In this document: positions 13,499 to 56,859 of the stretch, one piece after another
Layout: every line of letters begins with the position of its first letter
Numbering within the stretch: the stretch's first letter is position 1
Source: Candidatus Woesebacteria bacterium
Lineage (GTDB): Bacteria > Patescibacteriota > Microgenomatia > UBA8517
DNA length: 64,000 nt
Direction: 5' to 3'
NCBI GenBank assembly: GCA_013374835.1
Contig: CP055307.1
Coordinates: 215,315 to 279,314 of the forward strand
Made by a program: the position numbers and the translations under genes
The notes under the pieces: model-generated
What the model was told of the DNA's origin: nothing
The model's database searches: none
What the model saw: only the letters and a program-made list of their open reading frames with translations

Positions 13499-14446
13499 AT
13501 GCTTACGAAGGTAATGTCTGCTACGCACTTTGGACTCGATACGTTGCCAGTTGAAGTTGAGGTAAATATCGCTAAGAAAGGTTTTCCGGGATTTAATATT
13601 ATTGGACTTCCGAGTAAGTCTGTTGAGGAAGCGAAGGAGCGAGTGAAGACAGCGCTTGTTAATAGTGGAGTTGAGTTTCCGAATGCAAAGATTGTGGTTA
13701 ATCTTGCTCCTGCTGATATTCCCAAGGAGGGGAGTAGTTATGATTTACCTATTGCCTGCGGGATATTAAGATCTTTGGAGGCTATAAGCTTGCCTTCGGA
13801 AAAGATGTTTTTTTATGGAGAGCTTTCTCTTGATGGAAGTCTACGGCACACTAAAGGTGTTTTACTTCTTGCTCTTTATGCAAAAGAGCGTGGAATAAAA
13901 AGTTTATTTGTTCCTAAAGATTCTTCATTTGAGGCGGCTGTGGTGAGTGGAGTGCGGGTTTATCCGGTTGAGAATTTGGCACAAATTCTTTCTCATTTTA
14001 ATGGAGGAGGACAAATTGGCGTGTTTCGTGGTTTGAAAAAAAACGATGTTCATGAAGATATATTCCCGGAGATTGATTTTTCCGACATACTAGGGCAGGA
14101 GAGCGCAAAGCGAGCTTTGGAGATTGCTGCTTCTGGTGGGCACAATGTTCATATGCAAGGGCCTCCGGGATCGGGGAAAACCATGCTTGCAAGAGCGATG
14201 GCTGGGATTTTACCTCCATTGAGCGAAAAGGAAAGCCTTGAAGTAACTAAGATATATTCGGTTTCTGGGAATTTGCCTGCTGGGGCAAGCCTTATTTATG
14301 TCAGGCCGTTTCGAGTATCTCATCATACAACAAGCAGGATTGGGCTTATAGGCGGTGGAAGCAATCCTCACCCCGGGGAGATCTCGCTTGCTCACCGTGG
14401 AGTTTTGTTTTTGGATGAGTTATCGGAGTTCTCGGAGGTAAGTTAG
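13499..14446 (+). pseudogene. comM: ComM/YifB Mg-chelatase-family AAA+ ATPase, 5' fragment interrupted by the prophage
   Basis: N-terminal Lon/ChlI-like domain, Walker A GPPGSGKT, Walker B VLFLDE. The frame terminates 9 codons after Walker B (...LDELSEFSEVS*). The matching C-terminal part is found at 54938..55597. Confidence 0.85.
14412..14421 (+). repeat. attL core repeat TGGATGAGTT, within ~48 bp of imperfect similarity to the attR region
   Basis: Identical 10-mer at 54978..54987. The flanking sequence is ~60% identical on both sides and encodes comM-like peptides. Confidence 0.7.
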
Positions 14447-14539
14447 CTTCTTTTCTTCTTAAAGTCCCTGGACTTTTCCCAGTGCTAAATACCAGTGAAA
14501 CACATTTCTAAGTAAAAGTCAAGCCCTTTTTTGCCCCCT

Positions 14540-14608
14540 GCCTAAAGTCGTTATAATTTTAGTTGGAAATGTTGGAGAAGTTGGAAACCTGCCCCTTATA
14601 ATTGAACC
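14540..14608 (+). promoter_or_regulatory. Putative integrase promoter region with three tandem 9-bp repeats GTTGGA(A/G)A(N)
   Basis: TATAAT at 14552..14557. Repeats GTTGGAAAT, GTTGGAGAA and GTTGGAAAC at 14562..14588. A second TATAAT-like hexamer lies just before the int ATG at 14609. Confidence 0.3.
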
Positions 14609-15679
14609 ATGAGCTATCAAAAATACCTCTCGGAATACATTGATTTTATTCGCTATGACCGAGACCTCACCGATCATACATGCAAAGTGCGGAGGCAGTG
14701 GCTAGAGCGCTTCTTTCGTGACCTGGGTGGTCGGGAGTTCTCGTTTGAAAATATACGACTGCTCCTGCGGGAGTATAAAAGAAGCGATTTGTCTCCTAAC
14801 TATATCCATGTCCTAATCACTTCCCTCAACTCATTCATCCGCTTCCTTATTGCCGAGAAGCATTTGCCTTTAGAGGATTGCACTTCTAACCTGAACCAGC
14901 TTCGTCCCAAGAAGAAAATCGTTTTATACCAGACCCTTTCGTTGGAAGAGATTGAGAAAATCATCAATCCGCCCCCTCATAAAAATAACTACGAGCGGGA
15001 TTTGCATCCCAAGTATATTAAATGCGACTACATGTGGGGTTTGCTCCTGGAGTTCCTTGCCAAGACTGGTTGCCGTGTTGGAGAAGTAATCGCCCTAAAT
15101 GTGGGCGATTTTAACTTTGGCACGAATGAGTTTATTATCCGTGAGACTAAAACTGATGAGCAGCGCATCGTGCCTATTCCTCCTGATATGATTGAGAAAT
15201 TGCGGGAGTGGATTAAAAACAGGGGTGAGATTCCACCTTCTTCGCCGATGTTTATAACTATGCATTTTGCCCGCACCCGCCCTAATTCACGCATCGGCGA
15301 GTCTATGGTTAATAAGACTATTCGAGAGCGTGCCAAACGAGCTGGGCTTCATGTCGATCGGCGCTTTCACGCCCATAGTTTTCGCCATAGTTTTATAACC
15401 GAACTCTTGCGTCAGGATGTGGCTATCTCAAAAGTCCAGCGGATTGTTGGTCACCGCAAGGTTGATACTACCATGATCTATACTCACATGGTCACCGACG
15501 ATCTCCGCCAGGCGATGCTTAAGCACCCGCTTATTCGCAAGTCCCAAGACCCGCATGCTATTATCGAGAGTGTCAAAGAGGAGATTAAGTCTTTCAGATT
15601 GCATGGTGACGAGCGTTTTGATTACACTCTAACCGAGCGGAACGACGGCTTTTCCTTCAATATTTCTCTTAAGAAGTAA
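14609..15679 (+). CDS. int: Tyrosine recombinase / phage integrase
   Basis: N-terminal SAM-like core-binding domain. C-terminal catalytic motifs ...TGCRVGEVIAL..., HAHSFRHSFITELL, GHRKVDTTMIYTH (R...HxxR...Y). Confidence 0.9.
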   Translation: MSYQKYLSEYIDFIRYDRDLTDHTCKVRRQWLERFFRDLGGREFSFENIRLLLREYKRSDLSPNYIHVLITSLNSFIRFLIAEKHLPLEDCTSNLNQLRPKKKIVLYQTLSLEEIEKIINPPPHKNNYERDLHPKYIKCDYMWGLLLEFLAKTGCRVGEVIALNVGDFNFGTNEFIIRETKTDEQRIVPIPPDMIEKLREWIKNRGEIPPSSPMFITMHFARTRPNSRIGESMVNKTIRERAKRAGLHVDRRFHAHSFRHSFITELLRQDVAISKVQRIVGHRKVDTTMIYTHMVTDDLRQAMLKHPLIRKSQDPHAIIESVKEEIKSFRLHGDERFDYTLTERNDGFSFNISLKK

Positions 15680-15702
15680 AGTTTGATTGTATAATTGGAA
15701 AT

Positions 15703-54885: not shown

Positions 54886-54937
54886 GGTTTTTTGCCCTGG
54901 GATTGCGCCTTAATTTTGTGGGATAATTTAAGAGGTT

Positions 54938-55597
54938 ATGAAGCCTTTTTTATTTGTCCTTCGAGGATTCCGATTTCTGGATGAGTTTCCTGAATTTAGC
55001 AGAGGAACGCTTGAGGCTTTGAGGCAGCCAATGGAGGATGGTGAAGTTTCTATAACAAGGGCTGCTGGAAGTGTAAAGTTTCCGGCTTCTTTTATGCTTG
55101 TTGCGGCCAGTAATCCTTGTCCGTGCGGCTATCTGGGGGATGTTAGACGTGAGTGTAAATGTAGCCCTAGGCAGATAATGAGGTATCAAACAAAGCTTTC
55201 AGGACCTTTGATGGATAGAATTGATATACACATTAATGTTCCTGCTTTGGATGTTGATGAGCTGATGGAGAGAGGAGTTGTAAAGAGACCTGAAAGATCG
55301 ATTTCTGTGCGGGAGCGTGTTTTTAGGGCGAGAAAAATACAATTAAAAAGGTTTGATAAAGACGGGATTTATACAAATTCGGACATGAAAAATAAGCATA
55401 TTAAGAAGTACTGTGTGCTTGATAATGCGGGGCAGGCAATCTTAAAACAGGCGGTTAATACCTATGGATTATCTGCAAGAACATATTTTAGGATTATAAA
55501 AGTGGCAAGAACTATTGCCGATTTGGCAGGGAAAAAGGATATTGATGCTACTTGTGTTGCCGAAGCGCTTCAATATAGGGTCCGGTTAAACGATTAA
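54938..55597 (+). pseudogene. comM: ComM/YifB C-terminal fragment (Mg-chelatase C-terminal domain). Starts at a phage-junction ATG.
   Basis: MKPFLFVLRGFRFLDEFPEFSRGTLEALRQPMEDGEVSITRA... continues the comM sequence from Walker B onward, followed by the ChlI C-terminal domain. Together with 13499..14446 it reconstructs a ~515-aa ComM. Confidence 0.85.
54978..54987 (+). repeat. attR core repeat TGGATGAGTT
   Basis: Identical to 14412..14421. Lies inside the 5' end of the comM C-terminal ORF. Confidence 0.7.
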
Positions 55598-55975
55598 ATG
55601 AGTAAACTATATAATTTGCCAAAAGGCAGATATGGAGAAGAGGTTGGCAAGGATTATCTTTGTAAAAAGGGCTATAGTTTGCTTGCTAGGAATTATAGGA
55701 CGAGGTACGGCGAGATAGATTTAATTTTTTTGGATGAGGATGAAATAATTTTTGTAGAAGTAAAGGCAAAGGTGGGGGAGGACTTTGGTACTCCGGAGGA
55801 GATGGTAGACAAAAGAAAAATAAATCAAATTCAAAAAACGGCCCAAAGCTTTCTTGTTACCAGAGCTGATTTGGCGCGAAAGTATGAAAAATATCGCATT
55901 GATGTCGTTGCTATAGTATTTAATGGAATGGGAGGGGTTGACAGGATTGACCATTATGAAAATGTGGAGATTTAG
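55598..55975 (+). CDS. yraN: YraN-family (UPF0102) endonuclease-like protein
   Basis: GEEVGKDYLCKKGYSLLARNYRTRYGEIDLIFLDEDEIIFVEVKAK is the characteristic YraN PD-(D/E)xK core. Confidence 0.75.
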   Translation: MSKLYNLPKGRYGEEVGKDYLCKKGYSLLARNYRTRYGEIDLIFLDEDEIIFVEVKAKVGEDFGTPEEMVDKRKINQIQKTAQSFLVTRADLARKYEKYRIDVVAIVFNGMGGVDRIDHYENVEI

Positions 55976-55992
55976 ATTTTGAATATAAATAT

Positions 55993-56859
55993 ATGGATTA
56001 TCAAGATTTTGAGATTAAAAGCGTAAAAATTGGTGACAAAAATTATCCTAAGAGATTGTCTGAAATAAAAAATTATCCAAAAAAAATTTTTTATAGAGGA
56101 AATATTGGTATTTTAACGTCTAAAATTCTTGGTGTTGTCGGCAGCAGGAGAATGACACGGTATGGAAAGATCGTTATTAAAAATTTTATCCCGGCACTTG
56201 TTTCGGAGGGAGTGGTAACAGTAAGCGGGTTTATGTATGGGGTTGACACAGAGGTTGCCAGGGAGACGCTTTTGGCCGGTGGCAAAACTGTTGCGGTTTT
56301 TGGCTGTGGGCTTGATGTAGTTTATCCACCTGAGAATAAAAAGCTTTATACTCAGATACTTGAAAACGATGGGCTTGTTTTGAGTGAATATGAGAAAAAT
56401 GCAAAGCCTCATTTGTGGAAATTTCCTCAAAGAAATAGAATTGTAGCAGGAGTAACTTCTCTTGGTGTACTGATTATTGAGGCCGGAATTAATAGCGGTT
56501 CTTTGATTACTGCGAGGCTTGCCCGCTCTATGGGGAAAAAAATATGGGCAGTGCCAGGACCTATTGATTCGTTGACTTCACAAGGGACTAATTATTTTAT
56601 TAAGAAAGGTTTTGCTAAGATGGCGACAGAGCCTTGTGATATTTTATCAATGAAAAGGATTGCAAAGAGGGTGTATGAAAAATCCAATTTAGATTCTTTT
56701 GAAAAGAGAATTTTTAATATTTTGGCACGTGAGCCTTTGGGCGCGGATGAAATCTCTCAAGCTTTATCTGAGGATATTTCAAGGGTGTCTTCAGCTTTGA
56801 CAGTAATGACAATAAAGGGAATTATAAGCGAAAGCGGGGGAAAATTTTATAATAGTTGA
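55993..56859 (+). CDS. dprA: DNA processing protein A (DprA/Smf)
   Basis: Rossmann-like DprA core GVVGSRRMTRYG...VSGFMYGVDTEVARETLLAGGKTVAVFGCGLDVVYPPENKKL with a C-terminal winged-helix tail. Confidence 0.85.
   Translation: MDYQDFEIKSVKIGDKNYPKRLSEIKNYPKKIFYRGNIGILTSKILGVVGSRRMTRYGKIVIKNFIPALVSEGVVTVSGFMYGVDTEVARETLLAGGKTVAVFGCGLDVVYPPENKKLYTQILENDGLVLSEYEKNAKPHLWKFPQRNRIVAGVTSLGVLIIEAGINSGSLITARLARSMGKKIWAVPGPIDSLTSQGTNYFIKKGFAKMATEPCDILSMKRIAKRVYEKSNLDSFEKRIFNILAREPLGADEISQALSEDISRVSSALTVMTIKGIISESGGKFYNS

Follow-up and report, generated by a model that had tools for sequence, protein, structure and literature searches.

A 64,000-nucleotide (nt) stretch of DNA from a Candidatus Woesebacteria bacterium (assembly GCA_013374835.1, contig CP055307.1, positions 215,315 to 279,314; hereafter the window, in whose numbering all coordinates are given) harbours a complete tailed prophage that splits the competence gene comM and encodes, between its terminase and portal genes, a nuclease of the staphylococcal type (SNase) with a predicted membrane anchor. 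Natural transformation is thought to purge mobile elements from genomes, and the elements respond by breaking competence genes or by degrading incoming DNA. We put the probability at roughly 0.45 that the following joint account holds for this prophage. A temperate tailed phage of Microgenomates-type Candidate Phyla Radiation (CPR) bacteria would insert at the Walker-B codons of comM by means of its tyrosine integrase and thereby split ComM, and its nuclease would be made in lysogens, anchored by a two-helix hairpin with the SNase and cysteine-rich domains outside, where it would cut DNA at the cell surface. The loss of ComM, a possible polar effect on dprA and the degradation of DNA at the surface would then jointly lower the recombination of incoming DNA, which would keep transformation from deleting the prophage and protect it against competing elements. 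Such an anti-transformation role is plausible from the sequence and matches precedents, and conceptually it is not new.

The insertion in comM

That a prophage interrupts comM, as the original prediction had it, is confirmed by Pfam matches on both gene fragments, by a 10-bp att core at both junctions and by an empty site in a relative. The span proposed at the time (13499-56859) does run from the comM start to the dprA stop and takes in both genes; it does not give the limits of the prophage. By alignment of attL, attB and attR the insert measures 40,566 bp, with the core TGGATGAGTT present at 14412-14421 (attL, inside the Walker-B codons F-L-D-E) and again at 54978-54987 (attR), and with the host DNA of either flank ending at this shared sequence. 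The prophage body (14422-54977, nearly all genes on the minus strand) was delineated with PHROGs, Pfam and the G+C profile, which stands at 0.45-0.50 between ~14 and 54 kb as against 0.37-0.40 in the flanks.

The 5' fragment of comM (13499-14446, plus strand, 315 amino acids (aa)) retains the ChlI/Lon-like N domain (Pfam ChlI, E 5e-43) and Walker A (Mg_chelatase positions 1-120 of 207); it is host sequence up to 14421, its final codons and stop being phage arm. The open reading frame (ORF) of the 3' fragment (54938-55597, plus strand, 219 aa) covers Walker B onward and the C domain (Mg_chelatase 107-206 and Mg_chelatase_C), and its first 13 codons, the ATG included, likewise belong to the phage arm. 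The arms provide the fragments with a few ComM-like codons and a stop or a start, and the gene is rebuilt on neither side. Because the att core lies within the Walker-B codons, Walker A and Walker B are found on separate fragments, 40.6 kb apart, and since neither fragment has both motifs, neither should function as an ATPase. Precise excision would restore the reading frame of comM.

A search with the rebuilt ComM recovered the empty site on a 266-kb metagenome contig, where an intact ComM of 505 aa (P0121, 97% identical) stands among the same neighbours (UvrD, MacB/FtsX, a 171-aa gene, comM, yraN and dprA). The insert thus shows the marks of a comM-targeting element: a split target with a short direct repeat, an uninterrupted allele in a close relative, and a recombinase at the junction (a tyrosine integrase, 14609-15679, plus strand; Pfam Phage_integrase, E 2.9e-31) with related recombinases at the same site of other genomes (L012 and L013). 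The nearest named relatives of the ComM protein, at ~70% identity, are from Ca. Woesebacteria (Patescibacteria group), and from these and the genes present in the flanks we place the host among the Microgenomates-type CPR bacteria. A host contig (L003, SRR6186653_1103, 67.6 kb) was seen to stop at residue 7 of the 3' comM ORF, ~20 nt into the phage arm from the attR core; a mixture of lysogenic and non-lysogenic (or excised) forms in its sample would be expected to give such an end.

Pfam matches also bear out the earlier claim that yraN and dprA lie immediately downstream of the 3' comM fragment: yraN (UPF0102; 55598-55975, plus strand; E 3.9e-25) abuts the comM stop codon and is followed by dprA (55993-56859, plus strand; DNA_processg_A, E 3.5e-68, and DprA_WH). 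The three genes are packed in an operon-like manner both in the lysogen and in the empty-site relative. A candidate promoter for them (TGGAAA-18-TAAAAT, 13463-13492, plus strand; a consensus scan match only) precedes comM, and the consensus scan returned no plus-strand promoter-like site between attR and dprA. In the lysogen yraN and dprA stand 40.6 kb from this sole promoter-like site upstream of comM, and the phage genes adjoining them are transcribed in the direction away from them. Hence, to the extent that weak promoter scans can be relied upon, the insertion may also reduce the expression of dprA, a consequence absent from the earlier reading which, if true, would affect transformation more than the loss of ComM. 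At attR the phage arm (54919-54940) contributes TGGGATAAT, which is like an extended -10, as well as AAGAGG and an ATG that shares its frame with the 3' comM fragment; from these signals, whose Shine-Dalgarno-to-ATG spacing is short, the fragment and yraN-dprA might be expressed to some degree. GC skew is very strong in the host flanks (4001-14000 and 54001-64000), at +0.15 to +0.36 per 2-kb window, and resembles the strand-composition disparity of the Microgenomates order UBA1400 (PMC7143001).

The nuclease and its transcription signals

The nuclease (40570-41571, minus strand, 333 aa) was characterised with Pfam, alignments, hydropathy, an AlphaFold model and the ratio of non-synonymous to synonymous substitution rates (dN/dS). 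Its SNase domain (PF00565) is matched with E 7e-22 and 78.3 bits for a cut-off of 21, aligns over residues 113-250 with staphylococcal nuclease in the PDB (E 3.6e-17) and keeps five of six key residues, D126, R140, T146, E148 and R192 corresponding to Asp21, Arg35, Thr41, Glu43 and Arg87 of the Staphylococcus aureus enzyme. Two hydrophobic segments (residues 10-37 and 46-70) form a helical hairpin in the model, which continues with a disordered linker, a confidently predicted SNase fold (~112-250), a second linker and a small C-terminal domain. Of the description as a membrane-tethered SNase/Excalibur nuclease, the SNase domain and the two hydrophobic segments stand; the Excalibur assignment scores under the Pfam cut-off of 22 (PF05901: 13.4 bits for the whole protein, 18.5 bits for the isolated tail). 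As six of the eight cysteines fall in the tail (~residues 280-333) and some homologues carry a precomputed PF05901 match, the tail is best called Excalibur-like. Judged by these features the enzyme looks active and surface-exposed, and we infer that its catalytic part is outside the cell from the basic inter-helix loop and the cysteine-rich, Ca-type domains. The protein has exact matches in CP058602.1 (GCA_013426185.1) and in several Logan assemblies, and its SNase part alone matches the PADLOC candidate model PDLC01096 ('C3a212, SNc+LTD', E 1.3e-50).

At least five further copies of the prophage have a homologue (73-85% identical) at the same place between the terminase and portal genes: Ca. 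Daviesbacteria STC_54, CAYPXO010000001.1, Ga0103680_10000154, an IMG/VR contig (which comes from the same metagenome as Ga0103680_10000154 and may hold the very same prophage) and Ga0209324_10002348. The small genes flanking the nuclease are variable between the copies. Pairwise dN/dS values for the nuclease (0.06-0.15, rough figures with synonymous sites near saturation) fall in the same range as those for portal, terminase and capsid, and by this measure the nuclease is under purifying selection, like the structural genes.

The insertion site is shared as well. The Daviesbacteria and CAYPXO010000001.1 contigs, which carry nucleases 75% and 80% identical to the one described here, have integrases (84% and 71% identical, respectively) directly after a comM fragment that ends at residue 313; the phage arm is conserved, and att core and host side differ at synonymous positions only. 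Thus, comM targeting and the nuclease are found together in at least three lysogens of different hosts. The ComM N-fragments of these two hosts are just 52-56% identical to the fragment in the window, and host G+C ranges from 0.33 to 0.39 where the phage core proteins are 75-89% identical across lysogens; high phage identity combined with divergent host ComM and G+C therefore indicates that the phage moved among distant hosts via one conserved site. In every copy (here and in L008, L012, L013, L057, L137, L273 and L274, which together with L053 are the related loci labelled in our comparisons) the G+C of the phage lineage is 0.47-0.50 versus 0.33-0.39 in the hosts. Phages are usually at or below the G+C of their hosts, and the lineage is thus unusual.

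Directly 5' of the nuclease gene a scan identified a sigma-70-like promoter (TTGCAA-17-TATAAT, 41595-41623, minus strand), whose -35 element, spacing and -10 element are conserved in relatives (TTGATA-17-TACAAT in L008, TTGATA-17-TATAAT in L057); L137 has an extended -10, TGGTATAAT. Just upstream of this promoter lies a perfect palindrome or hairpin, TCTAGCCC-N8-GGGCTAGA (41628-41651; 8-bp arms and a ninth pair across the spacer), which L008 and L057 both retain, with C-G in place of T-A at one pair of the stem. From its sequence it could serve as a terminator, lacking a T-run, for the gene upstream, act as an RNA element or bind a protein; a repeated operator was rejected on account of its single occurrence in the window.

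On the 3' side, sequence reading, folding and a custom scan located an intrinsic terminator (40446-40499, minus strand) with 22 pairs in runs of 8 and 13, ~-32 kcal/mol, a T6 run and a fold z-score of -4.2. It is by far the strongest hairpin-plus-T-run that the custom scan found on the prophage coding strand, and it is conserved in L137. As it ends 16 nt before the ATG of the portal gene (38559-40430, minus strand; phrog_332, phrog_156 and phrog_1216; 82-86% identical in related prophages), transcription of the portal must read through it. As far as sequence signals go, the nuclease gene has the upstream promoter of its own and the downstream terminator that characterise a moron, and with this layout a repressed prophage could express it with no readthrough into the structural genes. 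It shares with morons the conserved promoter directly 5', the strong intrinsic terminator directly 3' and the location inside the late-gene region; unlike typical morons, which are sporadic, it is retained in every member of the lineage and evolves like a core gene.

A second promoter-like site (TTGCAT-18-TAGAAT, 40534-40563, minus strand) was read from the sequence between the nuclease stop and the terminator, ~35 nt before the hairpin. The interval 40431-40569 is nearly identical in L137, whereas the flanking genes are ~74-82% identical as protein, and it resembles the PR'-tR' late antitermination module of lambda or a small RNA gene. With a promoter and terminator arranged in the manner of a late switch, the terminator is therefore no proof of a moron. 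The same arrangement gives rise to another explanation, namely that the nuclease serves the lytic cycle (breaking down host or released DNA for recycling or for freeing virions) and is transcribed with the packaging genes, the terminator being a late switch like that of lambda. Its position on the late-gene strand between terminase and portal would suit such a role, as would a conservation as tight as that of the structural genes and the promoter-like site and strong terminator immediately before the portal ATG. However, the dedicated and conserved promoter directly 5' of the gene, a membrane anchor that suits a cell-bound enzyme more than a lysis-released one, and a ribosome-binding site that is weak by comparison with the neighbouring phage genes lead us to consider a lytic function very unlikely.

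Competing readings and precedents

Several observations weigh against the anti-transformation reading. In the nuclease, the position of the Ca ligand Asp40 is taken by N145 (N and D vary there across the family alignment), and the terminator may serve a late-gene switch and not the nuclease gene. The nuclease is not obligatorily tied to comM: a homologue of 64% identity resides in a small element with a serine recombinase that is not in comM, one of 53% in an element with a tyrosine integrase beside ftsZ, and one of 46% is chromosomal (L218, GCA_021462985.1) and adjoins the pst phosphate-transport operon and phoU. Furthermore, the 53 IMG/VR loci that match ComM include at least eight prophage contigs, without detectable protein similarity to the prophage described here, in which a comM 3' fragment starts at the identical FLDE|LPEF junction and follows sequence that is not comM. 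Prophages so dissimilar at the same codons make the site a general hot spot, and since others use the conserved landing pad, selection for an effect on competence is not needed to explain why comM is targeted; the hot spot also fits the view that an almost unchanging motif, in a gene that can be dispensed with, is simply good for attachment.

Within 10 kb on each side of comM, tblastn detected the nuclease in none of the 53 comM-bearing loci, a result that is uninformative given that here the nuclease lies 13 kb away from attR and 26 kb away from attL. In four IMG/VR loci (L251, L256, L257 and L260) the ComM match ends at about residue 375-396 with ~10 kb more sequence downstream, which may mark a second integration hot spot in comM. 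Viral contigs often encode relatives of the SNase domain (346 stretches in IMG/VR, 417 phage records in GenBank), and no record covering at least 80% of the nuclease was found among these 417.

The hot spot and the chromosomal homologue lend themselves to an explanation in which comM would be a mere landing pad (a conserved, dispensable site available in a broad range of hosts) and the surface nuclease would digest DNA from the environment or from the host, providing nucleotides and phosphate to a bacterium unable to make nucleotides, to the benefit of lysogen and phage, any effect on transformation being a by-product. The landing pad agrees with the movement of the phage between divergent hosts through one conserved site, with the solely synonymous differences of the att cores and with the prophages of no detectable protein similarity that break comM at FLDE|LPEF, although the literature already links comM insertions to lower transformation (PMC12378983). 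Scavenging is favoured by the homologue beside the phosphate-uptake operon, a context hinting that the cellular family members may scavenge nutrients, and by CPR bacteria that are without nucleotide synthesis (PMC10633639). On the other hand, the single CPR bacterium examined did not need its com genes to grow (PMC10633639), a result that makes a link of DNA uptake to nutrition weaker, and the closest homologues of the nuclease (53-84% identical) sit on mobile elements, not on the core chromosome. We hold this explanation to be possible, albeit somewhat doubtful.

A variant joins nutrition to protection: in a nucleotide-auxotrophic CPR host, the nuclease and the disruption of the comM-yraN-dprA operon would together shift DNA uptake from recombination to pure nucleotide harvesting, feeding phage replication and shielding the prophage from transformational deletion, with the operon under an excision-reversible switch. 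This appears distinctly improbable to us.

The precedents bear on the anti-transformation reading more directly. Insertions in comM at the orthologous position have been reported in many species (Croucher et al. 2016, PMC4774983; PMC12378983), with integrase-driven elements in Aggregatibacter, Acinetobacter, Mannheimia, Francisella and Pseudomonas syringae (PMC4774983; PMC12378983). In Gram-negative bacteria ComM, which promotes branch migration, aids transformation without being essential to it (PMC12378983), and both comM insertions and element-borne DNases lower transformation (PMC12378983; PMC4774983). The published comM elements resemble the prophage described here in having a site-specific recombinase, in being inserted inside the comM frame at an orthologous conserved position and in leaving the gene split and not rebuilt, so that exact excision would give it back; they differ in that the host here is a CPR bacterium and the element is a complete tailed prophage that also carries a nuclease. 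The AbaR islands of A. baumannii are different again, as they reach comM by transposition and not via an integrase.

For the nuclease the nearest counterpart is YokF of the Bacillus subtilis prophage SPbeta, likewise a prophage-encoded, membrane-located SNase/thermonuclease composed of an anchor, a nuclease and a C-terminal domain (35% identity over the nuclease domain), for which a roughly tenfold lowering of transformation is cited in PMC4774983. The YokF family is built of a signal peptide, a TNase and a TNM domain; the nuclease domain alone aligns with it here (residues 119-249), the signal peptide and self-inhibitory C-terminal domain of YokF being replaced by a two-helix hairpin and a cysteine-rich, Excalibur-like tail. 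SPbeta, moreover, is not inserted in comM. Transformation is also reduced by Dns of Campylobacter jejuni CJIE1, by the CJIE2/CJIE4 nucleases and by IdeA/SxnA of Vibrio cholerae integrative and conjugative elements (PMC12378983), which have in common with the present enzyme that they are DNases of integrated elements acting outside the cytoplasm. By the review's description they are of other nuclease families (secreted or periplasmic endonucleases, DNA/RNA non-specific endonucleases; PMC12378983); they are soluble or periplasmic, have no membrane hairpin, and their elements leave comM intact.

YokF has recently been assigned to blocking plasmid transfer through nanotubes (bioRxiv 10.1101/2025.10.26.684598), and the nuclease described here could accordingly exclude or defend against mobile DNA entering from outside, such as superinfecting phages or plasmids, with no connection to chromosomal transformation or to the insertion in comM. 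The shared SNase domain, the strong PADLOC match and the presence of homologues on several kinds of element would agree with this. However, the architecture is unlike that of YokF, the PADLOC match is limited to a generic nuclease domain, and a surface nuclease has little access to DNA injected by phages; we regard exclusion as unlikely.

To return to the anti-transformation reading, the idea directly applies a published hypothesis and published precedents (PMC4774983, PMC12378983), and the mechanism would be that of the comM-targeting islands and of the DNases YokF, Dns and IdeA. The Listeria prophage phi10403S in comK (active lysogeny) offers a further parallel, since it too lies in a competence gene and precise excision would restore the frame; regulated, non-lytic excision would be a possibility for the prophage in comM. 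CPR bacteria carry com genes widely, and Saccharibacteria are naturally transformable in a comEC-dependent manner, with com genes not needed for growth (PMC10633639). Prophages in Microgenomates were first described in 2019, and we found no literature report of a comM-integrated prophage in CPR bacteria. New here are the nuclease conserved in the lineage, the comM codons shared as a target in distant hosts, the nuclease gene's own promoter and terminator, and the possible loss of promoter input to yraN-dprA.

Remaining gene content and biological meaning

The minus-strand genes of the prophage comprise a sigma-like protein, a Rad52/Erf-like protein, a replication initiator, a Ros/MucR-HNH protein, a ParB-methyltransferase, the terminase and an accessory block, and further the nuclease, portal, major head protein, tail/amidase, tail fibre, a 1795-aa protein and a C39-like peptidase. 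PHROGs supplied the assignments of terminase (large subunit, 45341-46915, minus strand; phrog_675, E 2e-95), portal, major head protein, tail fibre, amidase, replication initiator and methyltransferase. Neither Pfam nor PHROGs matched the accessory genes around the nuclease (41672-44523), tRNA-Cys was the sole Rfam match, and the Rad52/Erf-like protein beside attR had no relatives in the metagenome and viral contigs scanned.

Two small genes on the integrase strand (15703-16344, plus) are candidates for the lysogeny module by sequence: a 92-aa protein 3' of the integrase, 65-76% identical in L012, L013 and L053 (tblastn), and an AbrB/MazE-fold protein (16081-16344; Pfam MazE_antitoxin, E 1.3e-7). 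The latter, beside the integrase, is a better repressor candidate than the sole large plus-strand ORF in the phage body (49141-49707), which we rejected for its S/F/P/L-rich translation and for the small genes that NCBI has on the opposite strand; it is probably an antisense artefact. Adjoining the lysogeny module are the C39-like peptidase with a coiled-coil tail (16829-17941, minus strand) and the 1795-aa protein (17948-23335, minus strand), both kept in all related prophages at 71-81% identity. The tail-fibre gene (24677-26008) contains direct repeats (25371-25678; spacing 90 and 120 nt, 53-82 nt long, 72-77% identical). DNA segments ~72-75% identical are shared between the N part of the 866-aa, amidase-bearing tail protein (30350-30834) and the gene of a 203-aa protein (32149-32760; segment 32197-32690), which suggests a duplicated domain.

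Should the anti-transformation inference fail, what is left is an ordinary prophage in a well-known hot spot. The interest lies mainly in the host group (competence in CPR bacteria was shown only recently, and their DNA uptake has been linked to nutrition) and in the conservation of both counter-measures together in one phage lineage. The lineage gives a nuclease with a defined promoter and an att site that works across distant hosts, and this site could serve CPR genetics as an integration tool. If the reading is true, the conflict between mobile elements and transformation would extend to the CPR, a large and mostly uncultured radiation, and a single phage lineage would be using both counter-measures together.

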